DNA of 27,730 bases from Aestuariivirgaceae bacterium (GTDB lineage Bacteria > Pseudomonadota > Alphaproteobacteria > Rhizobiales > Aestuariivirgaceae): NCBI GenBank assembly GCA_028282065.1, contig JANQIR010000128.1:1-27730 (forward strand), read 5' to 3'. Position 1 is the stretch's first letter, and each line of letters begins with the position of its first letter. Below the pieces are notes generated by a model, which saw only the letters and a list, made by a program, of their open reading frames with translations, made no database searches and was not told the origin of the DNA. Positions 3,819 through 13,120 of this stretch are shown here, in pieces. Made by a program: the position numbers and the translations under genes.

Positions 3819-4409
3819 GGTGCCGCATTGGGGAGAAGGACAGCGTTCCCAATTTGCAGTGTTCTCTGCACGGATGCATGTGCTTGTGAACACGGGGGAA
3901 ACATGCCTGAAAACATCTAATACCCGGTTAACGTGTGCGCATGCAATTGATGCACGCAATAGGCGTTGTGCGGGTCAAGCTTTCCATTACACACCGCCGA
4001 TCGCGGCGCATACGGCTGAGCCTGCACCCCTGGCATGGCGGTACCCTTTCAGTGCGCTGGGCAAGGCCCCCTAAACCGGCTCAATTCCAAGAGATTATTG
4101 ATGGATACGGGTGGAAAAGTGCAGGTGCTTGTGCCCGTTCCGCTATAGGGGATCGTTAACCATATGCGCAAAATCCGGGCCCGCCAACCCGATAGCGTCA
4201 ATTTTGAGCAAATTGCCCGGCATCGCCGAAGAGTGTGTTTACGATTAGCAGCTAGCGTCAGAGCTGACCTTTTTGTTCGGGAAGTACCTGATGCTGATGC
4301 CTTTTGAGCTGCTGCCCGGCACACAGGCTTTCGAGCCGGGCAACCGAAGCTGAAGTTTTACATTGACCCCGGATGCCCATTGACCAGGGGAAGAGGTGGA
4401 ATAAGTTAT

Positions 4410-6542
4410 ATGACATGGACAGTTGCAAAAGACAGCGGAGCGGTTTCCTTTTCCCATTGGCTTGGCGACGCGTCCGAAGGAACCATTATCGGCAGGATGG
4501 GAACTGCTGAAGGTGCCCTGGCGGTGTCCGGCGGCCATGCGGTCGGTGGCGAGCAGGACGGAAAACGGTTCGAGGTCTTTCCCGGTCAATCCAAGTTTCT
4601 TTATGACGATCTGTTCTATCACATGCCGATGATGGTGCATGTGACGGATGGTGACGGCATTCTCTTGTCATGCAACAAGAACACGATCGATACGCTTGGT
4701 TTCGCTGAGGAAGAGCTGATCGGAAAGCATTGTCTCGATCTGGTAACCAGCGAATCGCGCGACAAGCTGCAGCGCGAAATCCTGCCGAGGTTCTTTGAAA
4801 CCGGGTTCTTCAGCAACGTTGAAATCAAGTTCCTGAGAAAGAGCGGTCAAACTGTCGATGTCCTGATGTCGGCTATCGGTTACAAGAACGCTGATGGGCG
4901 CATCGAGCGTGCCGTCGCGGTGTTTGCCGATATGACGGAACATTCGCGCACTCAGGCTGCCTTGCGCCAGAGTGAACAGCGCTTCCGCAACTCGTTTGAA
5001 GCCGCCGCACATGGCATGATGATTCTTACCGTGGATGGGCGGATCGCCGCTGTTAACGGTGCGATGACCGAGATGTTGGGCAAGAGCGAGTTTGACCTGT
5101 TGTCGAGCAGTTTCATGGACATCGTGTCGGGAGACGACCTGCCCAAAGTGCAGGATCTTGTCAGCCGGATCCGGGCCGGAAGCGGCGACGGGGTCAATGC
5201 CGAAATTGCCTATAGCGGTGCTGACGACAAGATCCTAAATGCGCTCACCAGCATATCCGCGGTGCGCGACAGTTATGGCAAAGTCGATCAGTTCATCGTA
5301 CAGGCCGTGGACATTACCGGGCGGCAGCGGGCTGAAGAACATCTGCGACAGGCGCAGAAAATGGAGGCCGTGGGCCAGCTTACCGGCGGTATCGCACATG
5401 ACTTCAACAACCTGCTAACCGTTGTTATCGGCAATCTGCAACTGGTTGAGAGCGCTTTGAAGGGTAACGACAAGGCGCAAAAGCGGGCCAAGGAAGCCAT
5501 TGACGCTGCGACCAAGGGCTCGGAACTGACCAAGCAGCTTCTGGCGTTTGCCCGCAGACAGTCGCTGACACCGCAGGAATTGAAGGTCAACCAGCTGATT
5601 GAAGGTATGGCCGGGCTGTTACAGAGGTCGGTTGGCGAAGCCGTGGAGCTTCGTGTCGATCTGATGGACGGTGATCCCATGGTTGAGGCCGATCCCACCC
5701 AGCTTGAGACTTCGATCCTCAATCTGGCGATCAACGCACGCGATGCAATGACGAAGGGTGGGCGGCTTACCATCGAGACATCTTCTGAGTATCTCGACGC
5801 AGACTATGCCCGTGATCATGAAGAGGTCACGCCTGGCCACTATCTGATGATCGCTGTGTCGGATACCGGATCCGGTATCCCCAAACATCTGCTTCACAAA
5901 GTATTCCAGCCGTTCTTCACGACAAAGGAAGTGGGCAAGGGAACAGGTCTCGGGCTTTCTATGGTTTTCGGATATATCAAGCAATCCGGCGGGCATGTGA
6001 AGGTCTACAGCGAGGAAGGGCGCGGTACGTCCATCAAGCTCTATTTGCCGCGCAAGTTTGCCGATGGCGAGCTGGCTGCTGAAGGGACCGGAAAGTCCAA
6101 GCAGAAGGAAGAGCGCAAGGGCAAGATCCTGGTTGTCGAAGATCAGGAAAACGTGCGGGACGTCGCCGTCGAATTTCTTGAGGAATTCGGCTACGAGGTT
6201 GTACAGGCCGGCGATGCCGTGGAGGCGTTGCAGGTCCTGCAGGATCACCCGGATGTCGATTTGCTGTTCACCGATGTCGTTATGCCAGGCGGCATGAACG
6301 GATTCGATCTCAGTCAGGCGGCCGAGCAGATCCGGCCGGATCTTAAGGTTGTTCACGCATCGGGTTATCCGAAAGGTGCCATGGTGCATCAAGAAGAGCC
6401 GCGACTGAAGGACAACCTGATCTCCAAGCCGTATCAGCGCGAGGAACTGCAGCGCGTCATCGAGCAAACGCTCAAAGGCGAAGGCGCGATTGAGCTCGAT
6501 GCGCAGGACCGCGTCCTGGCGGCCGGCGGCGGGCAGTCCTGA
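4410..6542 (+). CDS. Cytoplasmic hybrid sensor histidine kinase / response regulator (PAS-PAS-HisKA-HATPase_c-REC)
   Basis: H-box AHDFNNLLTVVIGNLQL. N/G boxes NLAINARDAM, DTGSGI, GTGLGLSMV. C-terminal receiver with KILVVEDQ..., LLFTDVVMPGGMNG and a Lys-Pro motif. No TM segments. ATG at 4410 is preceded by AGAGGTGGA; the track start 4380 is a TTG. Confidence 0.85.
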   Translation: MTWTVAKDSGAVSFSHWLGDASEGTIIGRMGTAEGALAVSGGHAVGGEQDGKRFEVFPGQSKFLYDDLFYHMPMMVHVTDGDGILLSCNKNTIDTLGFAEEELIGKHCLDLVTSESRDKLQREILPRFFETGFFSNVEIKFLRKSGQTVDVLMSAIGYKNADGRIERAVAVFADMTEHSRTQAALRQSEQRFRNSFEAAAHGMMILTVDGRIAAVNGAMTEMLGKSEFDLLSSSFMDIVSGDDLPKVQDLVSRIRAGSGDGVNAEIAYSGADDKILNALTSISAVRDSYGKVDQFIVQAVDITGRQRAEEHLRQAQKMEAVGQLTGGIAHDFNNLLTVVIGNLQLVESALKGNDKAQKRAKEAIDAATKGSELTKQLLAFARRQSLTPQELKVNQLIEGMAGLLQRSVGEAVELRVDLMDGDPMVEADPTQLETSILNLAINARDAMTKGGRLTIETSSEYLDADYARDHEEVTPGHYLMIAVSDTGSGIPKHLLHKVFQPFFTTKEVGKGTGLGLSMVFGYIKQSGGHVKVYSEEGRGTSIKLYLPRKFADGELAAEGTGKSKQKEERKGKILVVEDQENVRDVAVEFLEEFGYEVVQAGDAVEALQVLQDHPDVDLLFTDVVMPGGMNGFDLSQAAEQIRPDLKVVHASGYPKGAMVHQEEPRLKDNLISKPYQREELQRVIEQTLKGEGAIELDAQDRVLAAGGGQS

Positions 6543-6718
6543 TAGGGCAAGATCTCAACCAGAGTTGATCATCTGATCCTCAAGCAGCCGGCGCTCCCGG
6601 CTTTGCTGGTCAAGTCACACAGCTTGGAGTTTTCGGCAGGAAACCCGGTTTCGAGAATGCCGGGTGACTGCGGTCCGAACAATTTCCGGGCGGTGCGCTT
6701 TGCCGGCCAGGCTTGTAG

Positions 6719-6751
6719 ATGCACATCCATACCATCTTCGATCTGCTGGCC
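6719..6751 (+). repeat. Left direct repeat (33 bp, 30/33 identical to 7837..7869): atgcacatccataccatcttcgatctgctggcc
   Basis: Duplicates the ATG and first 11 codons of the Lgt-like gene (MHIHTIFDLLA vs MHIHSIFDLLA). It opens a 30-codon orphan ORF that runs into the AT-rich segment. Confidence 0.7.
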
Positions 6752-7836
6752 TTCTGGTGTGCCCAATGGATTTCCAAGACTTTGGTGTTTACATATATTC
6801 TGATTTTCTAATCACTTGACCTCTGCATTCCGCTTTCTATTTATCGAGAAAGAATCGACAATTTCGGAAATTCTACCAGCTTGCTCCAGAAAATCAGCAC
6901 TTGTTTTTTCTCCAGAAATTATTGAACTCATGCCAAGAAGTATTTTTCTTTCTATTGATTTATTTATATATGTCAATCTATTGACTGTCATTTTCTCTAA
7001 TTTATCCATTTCGTTATTACTTAATGTATTTTCTATTAGTTTTTGGATGATTTCATCATTGCGCCAATCGTTTAATTCACTATCCAAATGAAAATTTCGC
7101 AAAATGTAGGCTGTTCGAATATTTATGGCTCGGTAAGCGTTGTATAGTGCCCAAACGTAATCACCAATGTAGAGTCGTGCCGTTTCAATTTCCTGGTCCA
7201 ATTTGGATATAACATTCACCATCTTGTCATCAACGGACGTCGTGTCTTCGCTAATCGAAAGGTGATTGCGCAGTTCTTCAGGCTTTAAGATATCAGCGTG
7301 CAAAAGCACTTCTGGGGCTACTTGGCGAACTTTTAGAAAGTCCTGCCAAACTCGTTCGCAAGCGTCGAGACGGCGTTCATGGAGCTTTTCTTGACCGCTG
7401 GCATATGTTGCCAAAGCGGCGCGCTGCACCTCAATCTTTTCATTGAAGCTAGCGCTCAGTAGGGCTAAAGCCGTCTCACGTTCTGATGTTAGGTCTGATT
7501 TTAGTCGCTCCAATCTTTCATCGAATATGTGCCTCGCCGAGGAAGTAAGGAATTGACCAATGTATTTCCGCGAAAGCCATCCAATTACGGCCATAAGACC
7601 CATTGTTATGAACGTCGGAACGGCGAAATCAGCAAGGTAACTCACAACGTGGCCCTTCGCTCTCTGATATTTGCGACTATTTTATTGCTTACCCGCAAAC
7701 CAACCAATTGCAATTTCAATCATCATTTTTGTGCAGTGATGTCCGTGACGCTATTGCAAGTGTGAAGTGCAGGTGATGTGCGAGTCGGATTTTCATGATC
7801 GATATTCTGAGAGACTAATTGGGTTTTGTTTCAATG
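6752..7836. mobile_element. About 1.1-kb AT-rich insertion (GC well below flanks) bounded by 33-bp direct repeats. Carries one gene. No recombinase visible.
   Basis: Abrupt compositional shift: flanks are about 60% GC, the interior is visibly AT-rich, especially 6780-7150. Flanking direct repeats are at 6719..6751 and 7837..7869. Confidence 0.5.
6812..7645 (-). CDS. Hypothetical membrane-anchored protein (N-terminal TM helix plus about 250-aa soluble, partly coiled-coil-like domain) encoded on the AT-rich insertion
   Basis: 277-aa ORF with GTG start and GAAGGG 10 nt upstream. Single N-terminal hydrophobic helix (FAVPTFITMGLMAVIGWL). Atypical composition for this genome: Asn/Ile/Lys/Glu-rich. 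Confidence 0.6.
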   Translation of the reverse strand: MSYLADFAVPTFITMGLMAVIGWLSRKYIGQFLTSSARHIFDERLERLKSDLTSERETALALLSASFNEKIEVQRAALATYASGQEKLHERRLDACERVWQDFLKVRQVAPEVLLHADILKPEELRNHLSISEDTTSVDDKMVNVISKLDQEIETARLYIGDYVWALYNAYRAINIRTAYILRNFHLDSELNDWRNDEIIQKLIENTLSNNEMDKLEKMTVNRLTYINKSIERKILLGMSSIISGEKTSADFLEQAGRISEIVDSFSINRKRNAEVK

Positions 7837-8541
7837 ATGCACATTCATTCTATCTTCGATCTGCTGGCCGCCACGGCGTCATTCGCGTTGACCACCGTCG
7901 TTTATCTGCGGTGGCTCAAGGATGATGCGCCTTCAGTGCTGGAGACGTCCGGGGCTGGATATGCAGTGGCCCTGATCGCAGGTGCCATTACCGGCGGCTA
8001 TTTCTTCGGCGCGCTCAATCTGTGGCTAACTGGTGCGCCGGGTATCGGGCGCTCCATTCTCGGCGCTCTGGCCGGCGCTATTGCTTTTGTGGAAATATTC
8101 AAAAAAATCAAAGGGATAAAAGGTTCAACCGGCCTGATTTTTGTTCCGGCCTTTGCCTGCTCGGTGATGGTTGGGCGGTGGGGCTGTTTCCTCTCAGGTC
8201 TGGAGGATCAGACGCATGGGGTGGAGACGTCGCTGCCCTGGGGCCATGATTTTGGTGACGGCCTCTTGCGCCATCCGGTTCAGCTCTACGAGTCCTTCGC
8301 CATGACGGCATTTCTCATCGCCGCATTGGTCATGATCGCGCGCCGCCAGCCGATGTTCATGCGAAATGGGTTTTATCTCCTGGTTTTGTGGTATGCGGGA
8401 CAACGGTTTATCTGGGAATTTCTGAAACCCTACGGAACGGTATTTTTGGAATTGAACATCTTTCATTTTTTGTGTCTCGGGCTTATTGTGTACGCCGTGG
8501 CGATGATGCGGGGAGGCCAGAATGAACGTTCCACTGCGTAA
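7819..8541 (+). CDS. Divergent Lgt-family protein (prolipoprotein diacylglyceryl transferase-like, PF01790-type) with altered catalytic positions
   Basis: 240-aa polytopic membrane protein. GRWGCFLSGLE aligns to the Lgt signature GRLGNFINGELWG. RHPVQLYES aligns to RHPSQLYE. GQRFIWEFLKP aligns to GAFRIIVEFFRQP of E. coli Lgt. N146 equivalent is Cys and H103 equivalent is absent. Start is TTG at 7819 or ATG at 7834/7837. Confidence 0.7.
   Translation: MGFVSMMHIHSIFDLLAATASFALTTVVYLRWLKDDAPSVLETSGAGYAVALIAGAITGGYFFGALNLWLTGAPGIGRSILGALAGAIAFVEIFKKIKGIKGSTGLIFVPAFACSVMVGRWGCFLSGLEDQTHGVETSLPWGHDFGDGLLRHPVQLYESFAMTAFLIAALVMIARRQPMFMRNGFYLLVLWYAGQRFIWEFLKPYGTVFLELNIFHFLCLGLIVYAVAMMRGGQNERSTA
7837..7869 (+). 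repeat. Right direct repeat (33 bp), equal to the 5' end of the Lgt-like CDS
   Basis: atgcacattcattctatcttcgatctgctggcc; 30/33 identity to 6719..6751. Confidence 0.7.
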
Positions 8542-9928
8542 GGCGGCGCCTTACATATTTTACGGACAGACGACGTCGCTGTGCGAGACCTGTCATGCGC
8601 TGGTGCCGGCCAAGATCATCGTCGAAGACAATGCTGTTTACTACCTTAAGCGCTGCCGCGAACACGGCGTGCAGCGTACGCTTGTCTCATCGGATGCGGC
8701 CTATTACCGGCTCTGTCAGGACTATCTGAAGCCAGGTGACCGGCCACTCACCGCACAGACGGCGACCAACTACGGCTGCCCTTATGATTGCGGATTGTGT
8801 CCGGACCACGAGCAGCATTCCTGTCTGGCGCTGCTTGATGTCAACGATGAGTGCAATCTGACCTGCCCTGTGTGCTTTGCGGACTCAAGCCCGCGGCGCA
8901 AGGCCCACAAGAGCCTTGACGAGATTGCCCGTATGCTCGATGCGCTGGTGGAAAGTGAGGGCGAGCCGGACCTGCTGCAGATCTCTGGCGGCGAGCCGAC
9001 ATTGCACCCCGACATTCTCGACATCATACGGATGGCAAAAGCCAGGCCGATCCGGCACATCATGCTCAATACGAACGGATTGCGCATTGCGCAGGATGCC
9101 GACTTCGTCAAGGCGCTTGCGGAATTCAAACCGGGTTTTGAAGTCTATCTGCAGTTCGACTCGCTCAAACCTTCGGCACTGAAGACCCTGCGCGGTGCCG
9201 ATCTGACGCGCATCCGGTACCAGGCTCTGGAGGCACTGGAGCGGGAGGAACTTTCGACCACGCTGGTTTGCGTCATGAAGCGCGGGATCAATGACGACGA
9301 GACGGGCGAGATCATCGAGCATGCGCTGCAATGGAGCTGCGTGCGTGGTGTGACGTTCCAGCCGATCCAGGACGCCGGCCGCAACGACGGGTTCGACGCC
9401 AAGCGCGACCGTATGGTGCTGTCGGATATTCGGACCTCGATTGCTAAGAGTTCGGCGCCTTTCGATGCTGCCGACATCATTCCCCTGCCGTGCAATCCGG
9501 AGTCGATTGCGATTGGTTATGCCTTGCGGTCAGGCAACAGGATTGCGCCGATTACCTCGTTCATCCCGCAAGATGTCATCGTGGCCGAAGCGCCCAATGC
9601 CATTACCTTCGAGAAGTACCCGGAGTTGCAGCGGCGGATCTTCGAGTTCTTCTCCCTGTCGACGACACCGGACTGTACGCCTGAACGGTTGGAAGCCCTG
9701 CTGTGCTGTCTGCCGGACGTTCAGATGCCTGAACAGCTCGGCTACGAACATATCTTCCGCATCGCCATCGTGGAGTTTCTGGATGCCTACAATTTCTGTC
9801 TGAGCCGGGTGAAGCGGTCTTGTATCCATTTTCTGACACCCGCGGGGCAGATCATTCCGTTCGATACGTATAACCTGTTTTATCGGGATGGGCGGATCGA
9901 TGACATCAGGCGGGGGCTTGTATCATGA
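8522..9928 (+). CDS. Radical SAM enzyme with N-terminal Cys-rich (zinc-ribbon-like plus CPYDCGLCPDH) extension and C-terminal Cys cluster
   Basis: Canonical CNLTCPVCF (CX3CX2C) 4Fe-4S/SAM motif. GGEP glycine-rich SAM-binding block (ISGGEPTLHP). GGGAGG SD 8 nt upstream of the ATG. Overlaps the Lgt-like stop by 20 nt. Confidence 0.85.
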   Translation: MNVPLRKAAPYIFYGQTTSLCETCHALVPAKIIVEDNAVYYLKRCREHGVQRTLVSSDAAYYRLCQDYLKPGDRPLTAQTATNYGCPYDCGLCPDHEQHSCLALLDVNDECNLTCPVCFADSSPRRKAHKSLDEIARMLDALVESEGEPDLLQISGGEPTLHPDILDIIRMAKARPIRHIMLNTNGLRIAQDADFVKALAEFKPGFEVYLQFDSLKPSALKTLRGADLTRIRYQALEALEREELSTTLVCVMKRGINDDETGEIIEHALQWSCVRGVTFQPIQDAGRNDGFDAKRDRMVLSDIRTSIAKSSAPFDAADIIPLPCNPESIAIGYALRSGNRIAPITSFIPQDVIVAEAPNAITFEKYPELQRRIFEFFSLSTTPDCTPERLEALLCCLPDVQMPEQLGYEHIFRIAIVEFLDAYNFCLSRVKRSCIHFLTPAGQIIPFDTYNLFYRDGRIDDIRRGLVS

Positions 9929-10113
9929 TACGTGTCATTGGCATCATCATGGGGGTTATGCTGGTGTTATTTGGCGGTGGGTGTGGAATTGTCATGCTTG
10001 GATCGGCTTATTCCGCGAATGCCGCAATGGTCTTATGGTGGCTGCTCTGGGGTGGTGTGCCACTGGTTGCCGGCGCATTACTGACCTATTTTGCCTGGCA
10101 TCACAAAAGATGA
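9925..10113 (+). CDS. Small two-TM membrane protein (62 aa) with n-region/h-region/FGGGC lipobox-like N-terminus and a basic C-tail (HHKR)
   Basis: ATGA start/stop overlap with the radical SAM gene, indicating translational coupling. Paralogous to the next ORF. Confidence 0.55.
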   Translation: MIRVIGIIMGVMLVLFGGGCGIVMLGSAYSANAAMVLWWLLWGGVPLVAGALLTYFAWHHKR

Positions 10114-10132
10114 ACGAAAGGGAGCGGCCGCA

Positions 10133-10372
10133 ATGGGCGTTCTTCGGGTCATTGTCGGGATTTTCGCGTCGCTCGTCGCCGTGTTCGCCGGCGGATGTTC
10201 GCTGATCATTTTCGGAATGGGCATTGTGGACTGGTTTTCCGGTTACCAATATGCGTTCATTAACTTCGATGCGATGCTGATTATCGGTGTTTTGCCTGCC
10301 GTGATCGGTGGGCTGGTTGCCCGGGCGTGCTTTCGCAAGCGGCCAAAGACCGGTGAGGGCGACAACAACTAA
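10133..10372 (+). CDS. Small two-TM membrane protein paralog (79 aa) with n-region/h-region/FAGGC motif and basic C-tail (RKRPKTGEGDNN)
   Basis: AAGGGAG SD 8 nt upstream of the ATG at 10133 (track start 10091 lies upstream of the SD). Shares F[GA]GGC-[GS]-[IL][VI][MI][LF]G and a GG-containing second helix with 9925..10113. Confidence 0.55.
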   Translation: MGVLRVIVGIFASLVAVFAGGCSLIIFGMGIVDWFSGYQYAFINFDAMLIIGVLPAVIGGLVARACFRKRPKTGEGDNN

Positions 10373-10482
10373 CGCGCTACAAAATGCACTGTGTTGATTT
10401 TGTCTCCCTGGCGAAGTTCCACCAGACTTTTGGGACACCGAAATATGGTGCGGGCGATATCATCGAATTGTGAGTGACGTCC

Positions 10483-11244
10483 TCACAGACCGCTCAGAAA
10501 CGACACGATGTGGCCGATGACGGGTTTTGGGTTCGTTACAGGTGACATATGCCCGCCCGCTGCTATCTCGGCACGCGTGGCATGTGGCAGCCGGCTTGCG
10601 ATCAGATCCATGACGGCATGTGCTGCCCGTGTCGTATCGGCTGCGTGAACCAGAAGCACTGGCCACTTGAAATCGTCATAGTCTTCCAGCCGGGTCGTAT
10701 GTCCAAAAGCACCGGGCCATTCATTGGCGACTTTCGGCATGGTATCAGCCACGGCTTTCTGGCGCTCTGCCGGCATGGCGTCCCATGCATCCGGGCCCAT
10801 CCAGTAAGATACGAATCCCTTTGCCGCTGCGGTGTCGTCTCCGGCCCTTGAAAGCGCGACTTGCCGGTCGCGAACGTCCCGTATTTCCGCGAATGCCTGT
10901 TTGTCGCCGGACTGCTCCAGCAAATGAAAGCACACCGGCTCGATCAGCGTCAGGGAGCGTATTGCGTCTGGCTGTTCGAGGGCAGTACGGATAGACAGCA
11001 AGCCGCCATACGAGTGACCGATGAGGTGCACGGGACCGCCGGCATCTGCAACATGCTGGCGTATCCGATGCCGGTCATCCTCATGGCCTAGCGATTCGGC
11101 CTCAGGACTCTCATTGCCGTAGCCGCACAGGTTCGGGGCGATGACCCGGTATTGCCCGGCCACCGCTTCGACAAGGCCACGCCACTGCCGGCTTGAGCTG
11201 GCGCTGCTGTGCACCAGAACGACGGGTTCACCGCTTCCCTCCAT
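10483..11244 (-). CDS. Alpha/beta-fold hydrolase
   Basis: VVLVHSSASS (HG-like oxyanion region), nucleophile elbow IGHSYGG, and a C-terminal His. ATG at 11244; the track's GTG at 11268 is also possible. Confidence 0.75.
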   Translation of the reverse strand: MEGSGEPVVLVHSSASSSRQWRGLVEAVAGQYRVIAPNLCGYGNESPEAESLGHEDDRHRIRQHVADAGGPVHLIGHSYGGLLSIRTALEQPDAIRSLTLIEPVCFHLLEQSGDKQAFAEIRDVRDRQVALSRAGDDTAAAKGFVSYWMGPDAWDAMPAERQKAVADTMPKVANEWPGAFGHTTRLEDYDDFKWPVLLVHAADTTRAAHAVMDLIASRLPHATRAEIAAGGHMSPVTNPKPVIGHIVSFLSGL

Positions 11245-11464: not shown

Positions 11465-13120
11465 ATGGCGCGGCAATTCATCTATCACATGCACGGCCTG
11501 TCCAAGACCTATTCGGGCGGCAAAAAGGTCCTTGAGAACATCAACCTGTCCTTCTATCCCGACGCCAAAATCGGCGTGCTCGGCCCCAACGGCGCGGGCA
11601 AGTCGACCCTGTTGCGGATTATGGCAGGGCTCGACAAGGAGTTTTCCGGCGAAGCCTGGCTGGCAGACGGGGCCACGGTGGGGTACCTGCCCCAGGAGCC
11701 GGAGTTGGACGAGAGCAAGGACGTGCTCGGCAATGTCATGGAGGGCGTTGCCGAAAAGCAGGCCATTCTTGACCGCTACAACGAACTGATGATGAATTAC
11801 AGCGATGAAACAGCGGAAGAGGGTGCCAGGCTGCAGGACCTGATCGACAGTCAAAACCTGTGGGACCTTGATGCCCAGGTCGAACAGGCGATGGATGCCT
11901 TGCGCTGCCCGCCCGGCGATGCTGACGTCTCGAAGCTGTCGGGTGGCGAACGCCGCCGCGTGGCGCTAACCAAACTTTTGCTGTCCAAACCCGACCTTAT
12001 CCTGCTTGATGAGCCGACCAATCATCTCGATGCGGAATCGGTCAACTGGCTTGAGCATCACTTGCGTGAGTATCCCGGGGCGATCCTGATCGTCACCCAT
12101 GACCGGTACTTCCTTGACAATGTCACCGGCTGGATCCTCGAGCTGGATCGGGGCAGGGGCATACCCTACGAAGGCAACTACTCGGCCTATCTGGAGCAGA
12201 AATCCAAACGGTTCAAGCAGGAGGCCCGGGAGGACGCAGCGCGGCAACGGGTGCTGGACCGCGAGCGCGAATGGATCGCGGCCTCACCGCGCGCCCGGCA
12301 GGCCAAGTCGAAGGCGCGGATCAAGGCTTATGACGAGTTGGTGCGAACCAATGAAGAGCGCATGAAATCGTCATCAGCGCAGATTGTCATTCCACCGGGT
12401 GAACGGCTTGGGTCCGTGGTGATCGAAGTTGACGGCCTCAAGAAGGCCTTTGGCGACAAGCTGCTGATCGATGCCTTGTCCTTCAAGCTGCCGGCGGGCG
12501 GTATCGTTGGCGTGATCGGTGCAAACGGCGCCGGTAAGACCACGTTGTTCCGGATGCTGACGGGACAGGAGCAGCCGGACAGCGGGGATATCAGGCTGGG
12601 TGAGACCGTGCATTTGGGATATGTCGACCAATCGCGCGATGCGCTGGATGGCAATCGGTCGGTGTGGGAGGAGATATCGGGTGGTAACGATATCATCCAC
12701 CTTGGGAAACGTGAGGTGAATTCAAGGGCTTACACGTCTGCCTTCAACTTCCGTGGTGGCGATCAACAGCAAAAGGTCGGTTCTCTGTCCGGTGGGCAGC
12801 GCAATCGCGTGCATCTGGCCAAGATGCTGAAATCAGGTGCTAACGTACTGTTGCTCGACGAGCCGACAAATGACCTGGATACTGAAACGCTCGCAGCGCT
12901 GGAAGAGGCGTTAGAGGAGTTTGCCGGCTGTGCGGTGATCATCAGCCACGACCGGATGTTCCTTGACCGGCTGGCCACCCATATTCTGGCATTTGAGGGT
13001 GATAGCCATGTCGAGTGGTTCGAGGGTAACTTCGAAGATTACGAGGAAGACAAAAAGAGGCGGCTGGGCGAGGATGCCGTGATGCCGAAGCGGATCAAGT
13101 ACAAGCAGTTTTCCAGATAG
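11465..13120 (+). CDS. ettA: Energy-dependent translational throttle protein EttA (ABC-F family ATPase, two ABC domains, no TMD)
   Basis: 551 aa. N-terminus [55 protein letters not shown] is near-identical in pattern to E. coli EttA/YjjK. Two Walker A motifs ([18 protein letters not shown]) and two LSGG signatures. Confidence 0.9.

Follow-up and report, generated by a model that had tools for sequence, protein, structure and literature searches.

In a 27,730-nucleotide (nt) stretch of DNA from an Aestuariivirgaceae bacterium (contig JANQIR010000128.1; the whole stretch is called the window below), we found a gene module with three parts: a divergent paralogue of the prolipoprotein diacylglyceryl transferase Lgt (the Lgt-like protein), an enzyme of the radical S-adenosylmethionine (SAM) type related to Tes and GDGT-MAS, and small membrane proteins that carry an invariant cysteine. 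The module is translationally coupled and is co-inherited across phyla. It has the look of a system, so far unstudied, that modifies membrane lipids or proteins. The reading that we favour, tentatively and at somewhat less than an even chance, is that the Lgt-like protein S-lipidates the cysteine of the small proteins, which would stay in the membrane as uncleaved hairpins, and that the Tes-like radical SAM enzyme modifies the ends of the acyl tails, either in the donor lipid or in the lipid once it is attached.

Gene architecture of the module

Four co-directional open reading frames (ORFs) on the + strand occupy positions 7819-10372, as verified against the window sequence and its ORF list (Table 1). 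The stop of the Lgt-like gene and the start of the radical SAM gene overlap by 20 nt, and the start of the first small ORF shares the nucleotides ATGA with the TGA stop of the radical SAM gene. The second small ORF begins 19 nt after the stop of the first, with a GGGAG located 8 nt 5′ of its ATG. A preliminary description of this DNA, made from the sequence without database searches, had given the same coordinates, the same two overlaps and an F(G/A)GGC motif in both small ORFs, and all of these were borne out. It had also put the second small ORF in tandem with the first, with a Shine-Dalgarno sequence upstream, and it erred in the gap between the two, which it had put at 20 nt. An independent gene call on an identical sequence in another public assembly (L081) gives the same boundaries for both small ORFs, and it starts the Lgt-like product at the internal ATG.

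Table 1. Positions, in window coordinates, of the module genes and of two diagnostic motifs (TM, transmembrane helices; aa, amino acids)
Feature	Position	Strand	Description
Lgt-like	7819..8541	+	240 aa if read from TTG 7819; start probably ATG 7834, giving 235 aa
Radical SAM enzyme	8522..9928	+	468 aa, Tes/GDGT-MAS architecture
Small membrane protein 1	9925..10113	+	62 aa, 2 TM, motif LFGGGC, Cys20 codon 9982-9984
Small membrane protein 2	10133..10372	+	79 aa, 2 TM, motif VFAGGC, Cys22 codon 10196-10198
Invariant Cys replacing E. coli Lgt N146	8185..8187	+	in signature G-R-W-G-C-F of Lgt-like
CX3CX2C radical SAM cluster motif C111-N-L-T-C115-P-V-C118	8852..8875	+	read from sequence

Conservation of the module across genomes

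A scan of a collection holding one genome per species returned at least 599 matching stretches, at least 586 of which encode a relative, and the best 80 loci were kept. Most of these 80 come from Alphaproteobacteria (Aestuariivirgaceae, Reyranella, Dongia, Rhizomicrobium, Phenylobacterium and Roseovarius); the other hosts among them include Planctomycetota, a metagenome-assembled genome of Flavobacteriaceae, Binatia and one gammaproteobacterium. The Lgt-like gene adjoins the radical SAM gene in 78 of the 80 loci, and in both exceptions the radical SAM gene lies at most about 220 nt from the upstream contig end. The 20-nt overlap between the two genes recurs in several related Hyphomicrobiales-type loci. 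In Planctomycetota the gene order is radical SAM, small ORF, Lgt-like, with the three parts still together.

Directly 3′ of the radical SAM gene, most loci have one to several small ORFs with two to four transmembrane helices. In about 30 of 59 loci, the first of these ORFs and the end of the radical SAM gene have 4-14 nt in common. As a crude motif test, we searched for ORFs with a transmembrane segment and a small-small-Cys motif. Among the 374 ORFs that lie on the same strand up to 1.5 kb downstream of the two enzyme genes, 85 are of this kind, versus 6 of 3603 elsewhere in the same loci. The first regular expression missed Reyranella-type ‘LTLGC’ motifs and some of the ‘SGLC’ type, most of which were recovered by a hidden Markov model (HMM) of the small proteins. 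This HMM matches in 77 of 81 loci, and all but one of its 157 matched segments (156/157) lie on the same strand downstream of the radical SAM gene. The reciprocal search, with a profile of 20 diverse small proteins, led to 517 database proteins. Among the 120 matches listed, lengths run from 62 to 102 aa, Pfam domains are absent, and the source names, where given, all read ‘hypothetical protein’. Wherever the contig of such a match was checked (7/7), the small protein is encoded directly downstream of genes for PF01790 and PF23545/PF04055 proteins.

The module extends well beyond these close relatives. Relatives of the radical SAM enzyme in the protein database number 8000 at E<=1e-10, and the 120 of them listed are 69-100% identical. 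In the Bacteroidota Chondrinema litorale and Persicobacter (radical SAM enzyme 48-50% identical), the order is Lgt-like, radical SAM and small ORFs ending in ...GAGVCGSFF or ...GNGYCGGMF. On plasmids of Mycobacterium avium and M. branderi (about 30% identity), the Lgt-like gene is followed by two small ORFs (...AGICTGLNP / ...GGLCTGLNP) and then by the radical SAM gene, and Nonomuraea has at least the pair of Lgt-like and radical SAM genes. In the distant versions the motif is in the last helix, and the cysteine is again about 17-21 residues past a basic patch, as counted on these sequences. The module is plasmid-borne in Mycobacterium and Chondrinema. The trio recurs in at least four bacterial phyla. 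The conservation of the gene neighbourhood, which the preliminary description had proposed as a check, is thus strongly positive (78/80; 77/81; 7/7), and these co-occurrence data uphold its core claim that a dedicated, divergent Lgt paralogue, a radical SAM enzyme and cysteine-containing small membrane proteins form one undescribed unit.

Clustering of the ORFs in the loci, which is noisy because of shadow ORFs in high-GC DNA, found beyond the three module parts lineage-limited neighbours alone (a histidine kinase in 27 loci, an ABC-F protein in 15). Neither this clustering nor the seven annotated neighbourhoods contain a conserved protease or transporter gene nearby, and the annotated neighbourhoods shown have no endolysin or other phage gene.

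The Lgt-like protein

The Lgt-like protein exceeds the Pfam gathering score of PF01790 (66.6 bits, cut-off 24.9, residues 66-230), and its seven transmembrane helices follow the Lgt fold. Its score against the lgt equivalog TIGR00544 is far below the cut-off (34.1 bits, cut-off 118.9), and the Lgt-like protein of the M. avium plasmid is also under this cut-off at 94.5 bits. Searched as a single sequence with phmmer, it has no match in the PDB, while a profile search gives a weak match to 5AZB (E 5.6e-4), a structure of E. coli Lgt.

Aligned with E. coli Lgt (PDB 5AZB/5AZC), the protein retains G142-R143, G145, G154, H196-P197, Y201-E202, Y235, R239 and E243. It is about 50 residues shorter than the E. 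coli enzyme, and its periplasmic head region is much reduced. Six residues are absolutely required in E. coli Lgt: Y26, H103, R143, N146, G154 and R239 (PMC13251419). R143, G154 and R239 are kept here, and the other three are changed. The Y26 position holds a nearly invariant His, with the alignment less certain at that end. The H103 position is aliphatic, with Leu in the window and Leu, Val, Ile or Met across the Lgt-like proteins that are linked to the radical SAM gene. The N146 position is Cys in 35/35 genomic orthologues, in 34/34 metagenomic homologues and in all nine radical SAM-linked Lgt-like proteins that we aligned with E. coli Lgt, those of Mycobacterium and Bacteroidota among them. 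These changes (Y26H, N146C and the loss of H103) are the altered catalytic positions that had been suspected from the sequence at the outset.

The cysteine substitution is compatible with Lgt function, because a Leptospira interrogans Lgt with N146C partly complements E. coli (PMC13251419). The combination of Y26H and N146C also has a precedent in MSMEG_5408 of M. smegmatis, an orphan second Lgt homologue (PMC13251419). A second lgt is carried by roughly 1,300 genomes (PMC13251419). These residue patterns place the Lgt-like protein in a recognisable Lgt subfamily, and its phospholipid-binding arginines are retained. It differs from canonical Lgt in its constant pairing with a Tes-like radical SAM enzyme and GGC mini-proteins, a pairing that goes unmentioned in the study of Lgt diversity, where the word ‘radical’ does not occur and so no radical SAM neighbours are mentioned (PMC13251419). 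Besides the invariant Cys in place of N146, which occupies the same alignment column in L082, L084 and L086, the radical SAM-linked Lgt-like proteins have a second nearly invariant Cys, located in the last helix (FHF-x-C).

The radical SAM enzyme

The Pfam domains of the radical SAM enzyme are PF04055 and PF23545, an N-terminal zinc ribbon. The protein consists of four parts: a rubredoxin-like zinc ribbon, an N-terminal cluster motif (CPYDCGLCPDH), the radical SAM core and a C-terminal cluster domain. The same four parts make up Tes/GDGT-MAS (M. jannaschii MJ0619, PDB 7TOL), with a zinc ribbon of three Cys and one His, CPYDCGLCP(D/N)H, CX3CX2C and a C-terminal Cys domain. GDGT-MAS is also the closest solved relative by sequence (7TOL, E 6e-66), and the predicted model of the radical SAM enzyme matches this structure over its full length in Foldseek (E 2e-32, TM-scores 0.75/0.71); the next match is MoaA, over the core only. 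The cysteines C21, C24, C45, C101, C111/115/118, C324, C396 and C434 are conserved in homologues down to 28-31% identity, the CX3CX2C trio is invariant in the alignment and in distant homologues, and C86/90/93 are kept in all but the most distant members. These cysteines are consistent with the four metal sites of GDGT-MAS. Domains, fold match and Cys positions thus agree on the four-domain architecture, and by sequence and structural model the enzyme is a full-length Tes/GDGT-MAS homologue and not a SPASM-type peptide maturase.

The enzyme nevertheless scores below the cut-offs of the curated models to which it is closest. The best-scoring of these is TrsS (NCBIfam NF045646) at 315.5 bits (cut-off 490), ahead of Tes (NF045702) at 278.2 bits (cut-off 450). 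Neither this enzyme nor the Lgt-like protein reaches the cut-off of any curated NCBIfam equivalog. TrsS matches the radical SAM enzyme end to end and is in the same length class. We rejected an identity with TrsS on the basis of the score and of the neighbourhood, which has an Lgt-like gene and no methyltransferase; in addition, unlike the TrsS radical SAM (seleno)protein, the ORF in the window has no selenocysteine (in-frame TGA). No dedicated SPASM, twitch or RRE domain model matched in the Pfam and NCBIfam search, and models of the SPASM family match the core alone, at 28-46 bits. Of the HMM searches that had been proposed for the locus, those with PF01790 and PF04055 gave matches, and those with dedicated SPASM and twitch models did not.

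GDGT-MAS abstracts hydrogen at archaetidylglycerol's terminal carbon, stores the radical on a sulfide in its C-terminal cluster and afterwards makes the C-C bond to a second tail; archaetidylglycerol is a glycerol-headgroup lipid, like the phosphatidylglycerol (PG) used by Lgt (PMC13459092). The enzyme described here differs from GDGT-MAS in its bacterial host with ester lipids and in its length (468 aa vs 526 aa). It also differs in its obligatory linkage to an Lgt-like gene and Cys mini-proteins; in the literature we found no such partners of archaeal Tes. Bacterial Tes homologues have been proposed as synthases of membrane-spanning lipids (PMC8941075), and they are counted in genomes and metagenomes as putative synthases of such lipids or of glycerol dialkyl glycerol tetraethers of the branched type (brGDGTs) without functional proof (PMC8941075, PMC11868695). 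The membrane-spanning lipid synthase Mss of Thermotoga and Thermoanaerobacter, also a radical SAM enzyme, has been proposed to join acyl tails of phosphatidylglycerol-type lipids in pairs; it is described as only remotely related to Tes, has so far been found only in anaerobes and has no reported Lgt-like or mini-protein partner (PMC13159169).

The small cysteine proteins

The sequences of the two small proteins are MIR-VIGIIMGVMLVLFGGGC for the first and MGVLR-VIVGIFASLVAVFAGGC for the second. In each, a short basic segment leads into a hydrophobic helix with LFGGGC or VFAGGC at its end, after which come another hydrophobic helix and a basic tail. Small protein 1 was recovered from a public protein database (P0347). 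Small protein 2 is 52% identical over 71 aa to a segment at the equivalent position in the closest relative, L001 (tblastn), and it is, by sequence, a paralogue of small protein 1. No Pfam or NCBIfam model covers either protein. The preliminary description had likened the arrangement to peptide-modification systems; the small proteins are integral membrane hairpins and not leader-core peptides.

Among the matched segments, 131 copies have the cysteine, and their logo reads L-x-x-L-[FL]-[SAT]-G-[GL]-C-[TSAG]-L-x-F, with GG-x-P...G...G-x-R in the second helix. Gly stands at position -2 in 92% of them; at position -1, 64% have Gly and 24% have Leu. The cysteine stands at a median of 20 (mode 17) residues past the last charged residue, mostly Arg or Lys, and is followed by 8-11 uncharged residues. 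This arrangement recalls a lipoprotein signal peptide, as had been noted at the outset: a basic n-region, a hydrophobic stretch and small residues lead up to a Cys at a similar depth. The resemblance does not extend to a canonical lipobox, which reads [LVI][ASTVI][GAS]C and closes a cleavable signal peptide. Instead of Leu, position -3 has Ser, Ala or Thr, Gly dominates at -2, and hydrophobic residues continue past the Cys into a second transmembrane helix. The Leu found at -1 in about a quarter of the copies is outside the canonical [GAS], and cleavage by signal peptidase II is therefore expected to be disfavoured. In Actinomycetota and Bacteroidota the motif is in the last helix near the C-terminus.

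The number of tandem paralogues varies from one to at least four separate ORFs per locus, with up to eight segments matched by the profile (e.g. L001 6400-7486, L054 6383-7336, L094 3035-4098). Some copies are extended to 110-130 aa with three to five transmembrane helices and retain the N-terminal GGC motif. An apparent fusion of the radical SAM enzyme with a small protein in L073 was rejected, as it is merely a long stop-free overlapping frame.

Proposed function and alternatives

We propose that these genes encode a conserved three-component inner-membrane module. The Lgt-like protein would be a specialised paralogue of phosphatidylglycerol:prolipoprotein diacylglyceryl transferase, and it most likely remains a transferase with a phosphoglycerolipid as donor of a (di)acylglyceryl group and a thiol as acceptor, since the phospholipid-binding and catalytic arginines are kept. 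The acceptors would be the small hairpin proteins encoded alongside, through their single invariant Cys, which at 17-20 residues past the cytoplasmic basic patch, on a helix running from the inside to the outside, would have the geometry of a lipobox Cys. Because the motif departs from the canonical one and can probably not be cleaved, a mini membrane protein that is S-lipidated but left uncleaved would result. The cytoplasmic Tes/GDGT-MAS-like enzyme would carry out radical chemistry on unactivated terminal acyl carbons, in either the donor lipid or the lipid bound to the protein; as in GDGT-MAS, it would abstract H and park the radical on a cluster sulfur. The outcome would be a tail-coupled (macrocyclic or membrane-spanning) or otherwise tail-modified lipid that is attached to the mini-proteins or handled with them. 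We infer the Cys as acceptor, the lipid tail as substrate, the order of the two steps and the product from the families and residue signatures set out above.

A bolder form of this proposal is that ordinary aerobic bacteria make protein-anchored macrocyclic or membrane-spanning lipids, in which hairpins are S-linked to a glycerolipid whose tails are then radical-coupled by the Tes-like enzyme. The coupling could take place within one lipid, across leaflets or between paralogues. We regard this specific product as unlikely, though not so unlikely that it should be set aside.

Several points weigh against the proposed S-lipidation and tail modification. Three residues that are essential in E. 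coli Lgt (Y26, H103 and N146) differ in the Lgt-like protein, and MSMEG_5408, with the same signature, is presumed to have low Lgt activity (PMC13251419); for these two reasons the Lgt-like protein might be a lipid binder that transfers nothing. Loci L037 and L038 have room downstream but show no small protein, and these proteins evolve fast. The predicted structure of the radical SAM enzyme is only moderate (pLDDT 68), and residues 325-401, the central part of its C-terminal half, are unaligned with GDGT-MAS in the sequence search. Given this unaligned region and the sub-cut-off Tes score, the enzyme may act on something other than a lipid tail. The radical SAM enzyme is cytoplasmic and the Cys is predicted near the periplasmic leaflet, so a direct reaction between the two would be geometrically awkward.

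The strongest competitor is that the module remodels lipids and nothing else. The radical SAM enzyme would couple or modify the acyl tails of PG-type lipids, the Lgt-like protein would bind, present or trim the lipid (e.g. by transferring its head group to water or to another lipid), and the small proteins would be structural, regulatory or anchoring subunits whose Cys stays unlipidated. A radical SAM-dependent lipid-modification module had been among the alternatives offered in the preliminary description, and of these it fits the family assignment best: the radical SAM enzyme is in a lipid-tail coupling family, whose characterised member GDGT-MAS needs no protein substrate, and synthesis of membrane-spanning lipids is what has been proposed for bacterial Tes homologues (PMC8941075). 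The alteration of three essential canonical Lgt residues points the same way, as does the observation that MSMEG_5408 adds little to bulk lipoprotein lipidation. Lipid remodelling by itself would leave the small proteins hard to understand, however. Their sole invariant residue, in an otherwise fast-evolving sequence, is a Cys at lipobox depth after Gly-Gly or Gly-Leu, which is kept in four phyla even where the topology is permuted, and such a residue is difficult to explain in a mere scaffold encoded beside a thiol-lipidating enzyme fold. The retention of R143 and R239 also argues against it. On balance we think this explanation unlikely to be the right one, but it deserves to be taken seriously.

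The radical SAM enzyme might instead join a lipid tail directly to the Cys. In this case the thiol of the mini-protein would catch a terminal-carbon radical, either standing in for the cluster sulfide of GDGT-MAS or acting after it, to give a tail-linked thioether lipoprotein, and the Lgt-like protein would supply or position the phospholipid. GDGT-MAS does link the terminal carbon of the lipid transiently, through a C-S bond, to a sulfide of its C-terminal cluster; several conserved Cys of the radical SAM enzyme are in the C-terminal part, where this cluster sits, and the Cys of the small proteins is invariant. The predicted location of that Cys, near the periplasmic end of its helix, is nevertheless far from a cytoplasmic enzyme and from tail ends at the mid-plane of the bilayer, and the idea gives no reason to keep the Lgt transfer residues R143 and R239. 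We therefore judge it improbable.

Maturation of a ribosomally synthesized and post-translationally modified peptide (RiPP) was suggested by the tandem duplicated short ORFs beside a radical SAM gene, and the core of the enzyme does have weak similarity to SPASM-type maturases. Under this explanation the radical SAM enzyme would cross-link or otherwise modify the small proteins as precursors, and the Lgt-like protein would lipidate or export the lipopeptide. The analogy does not survive the family assignment, since the best matches are to full-length Tes, TrsS and GDGT-MAS, a family of lipid-tail C-C coupling, and the RRE and dedicated SPASM and twitch models are unmatched. Moreover, the small proteins have two to four transmembrane helices and basic tails with no leader-core organisation, and no protease or transporter gene is conserved nearby, which leaves this a very poor candidate.

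That the Lgt-like gene is an ordinary lgt, with an unrelated radical SAM gene next to it and small ORFs that are holin-like or spurious, is scarcely credible: a 27.7-kb window cannot by itself show a second lgt, and annotation pipelines do call the gene ‘prolipoprotein diacylglyceryl transferase’, but the co-occurrence data (78/80 loci, 7/7 reciprocally, motif enrichment of 85/374 vs 6/3603) already contradict such a reading. Also against it are the 34 bits against an lgt equivalog cut-off of 118.9 with Y26, H103 and N146 lost, the plasmid-borne modules of Mycobacterium and Chondrinema, and the annotated neighbourhoods shown, which contain no endolysin or phage gene.

Novelty and significance

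A full-text literature search that combined Tes or GDGT-MAS with Lgt, and Lgt-like or Lgt homologue with radical SAM, returned nothing that links these genes. The module combines known kinds of enzyme in an undescribed unit, and the combined chemistry, if real, would be categorically new. If our proposal of S-lipidation and tail modification is true, it would join thiol diacylglyceryl transfer with the radical functionalisation of unactivated lipid carbons, two activities that were not previously connected. Protein-anchored coupled lipids, if they are made, would explain many ‘bacterial Tes homologues’ as well as the orphan Y26H/N146C Lgt paralogues.

A large and highly conserved clade of bacterial Tes homologues (at least 586 stretches) is locked to an Lgt-like gene and Cys mini-proteins, which suggests a different or more elaborate function, and this linkage should temper the use of the clade as a source indicator for lipid biomarkers. 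The module also offers a concrete candidate role for second Lgts with Y26H/N146C, such as MSMEG_5408, with putative substrates encoded next door. Experiments are feasible in cultured carriers, which include Reyranella soli, Dongia sedimenti, Roseovarius conchicola, Alitabrizicola rongguiensis, Desertibaculum subflavum and Chondrinema litorale, together with the mycobacterial plasmids.

A sister branch and variant loci

A sister branch of the radical SAM family is without an Lgt-like gene and is paired with a DVU_1556/ArsM-like methyltransferase. We found it on a plasmid of M. vanbaalenii (39% identity) and on haloarchaeal plasmids (28-29%). The linkage to Lgt is therefore a property of particular clades and not of the whole radical SAM family, and the methyltransferase-linked branch is another uncharacterised module. 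Its radical SAM enzymes score 335-338 bits against TrsS in the two loci L083 and L087, below the cut-off of 490. Upstream of the module on the M. vanbaalenii plasmid are genes for CcdA and a thiol-disulfide oxidoreductase (L083 3971-6339), and peroxiredoxin genes are found near that on a Salinirubellus plasmid (L087 3893-6171).

Two metagenome contigs that resemble Rhizomicrobium-type loci have a cytochrome P450 gene directly after the small ORFs (L090, 4286-5494; L096, 3740-4993), and in L096 it overlaps the last small ORF. In this lineage the P450 may provide an extra lipid-tailoring step. On two long metagenome contigs (L091 2085-3201, L095 1225-1464) the Lgt-like gene, and in L091 also the radical SAM gene, is called as fragments of 79-245 aa, which are either pseudogenised copies or the result of long-read frameshift errors.

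Neighbouring genes in the window

Ordinary chromosomal genes flank the module in the window: they encode a hybrid histidine kinase with PAS domains, an alpha/beta hydrolase and an ABC-F ATPase. Nothing that resembles a phage was seen. This context, together with the lack of an endolysin in the annotated neighbourhoods shown, speaks against the holin-like role for the small proteins that had been entertained at first. The kinase (PAS-PAS-HisKA-HATPase-REC) is encoded upstream of the module at 4380-6542 (+), and the ABC-F ATPase downstream at 11465-13120 (+). Both are probably a matter of lineage synteny and not parts of the module, because their synteny with it (in about 27 loci for the kinase and 15 for the ATPase, of 81) is confined to close relatives among the Hyphomicrobiales/Aestuariivirgaceae. 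A scan of positions 7500-10700 for promoter and terminator consensus sequences gave sites no more numerous than in shuffled sequence, so a single transcript is neither supported nor opposed, and a tRNA scan of the window found none.

Between the histidine kinase and the Lgt-like gene there is a 277-aa ORF on the - strand (6812-7645) whose product has an N-terminal hydrophobic segment. It has no Pfam match, and tblastn found no counterpart in 80 related loci. The ORF is located in a dip in GC content at about 6500-8000, where the local value is about 45% vs 55-60% elsewhere, and it looks like a lineage-specific insertion.

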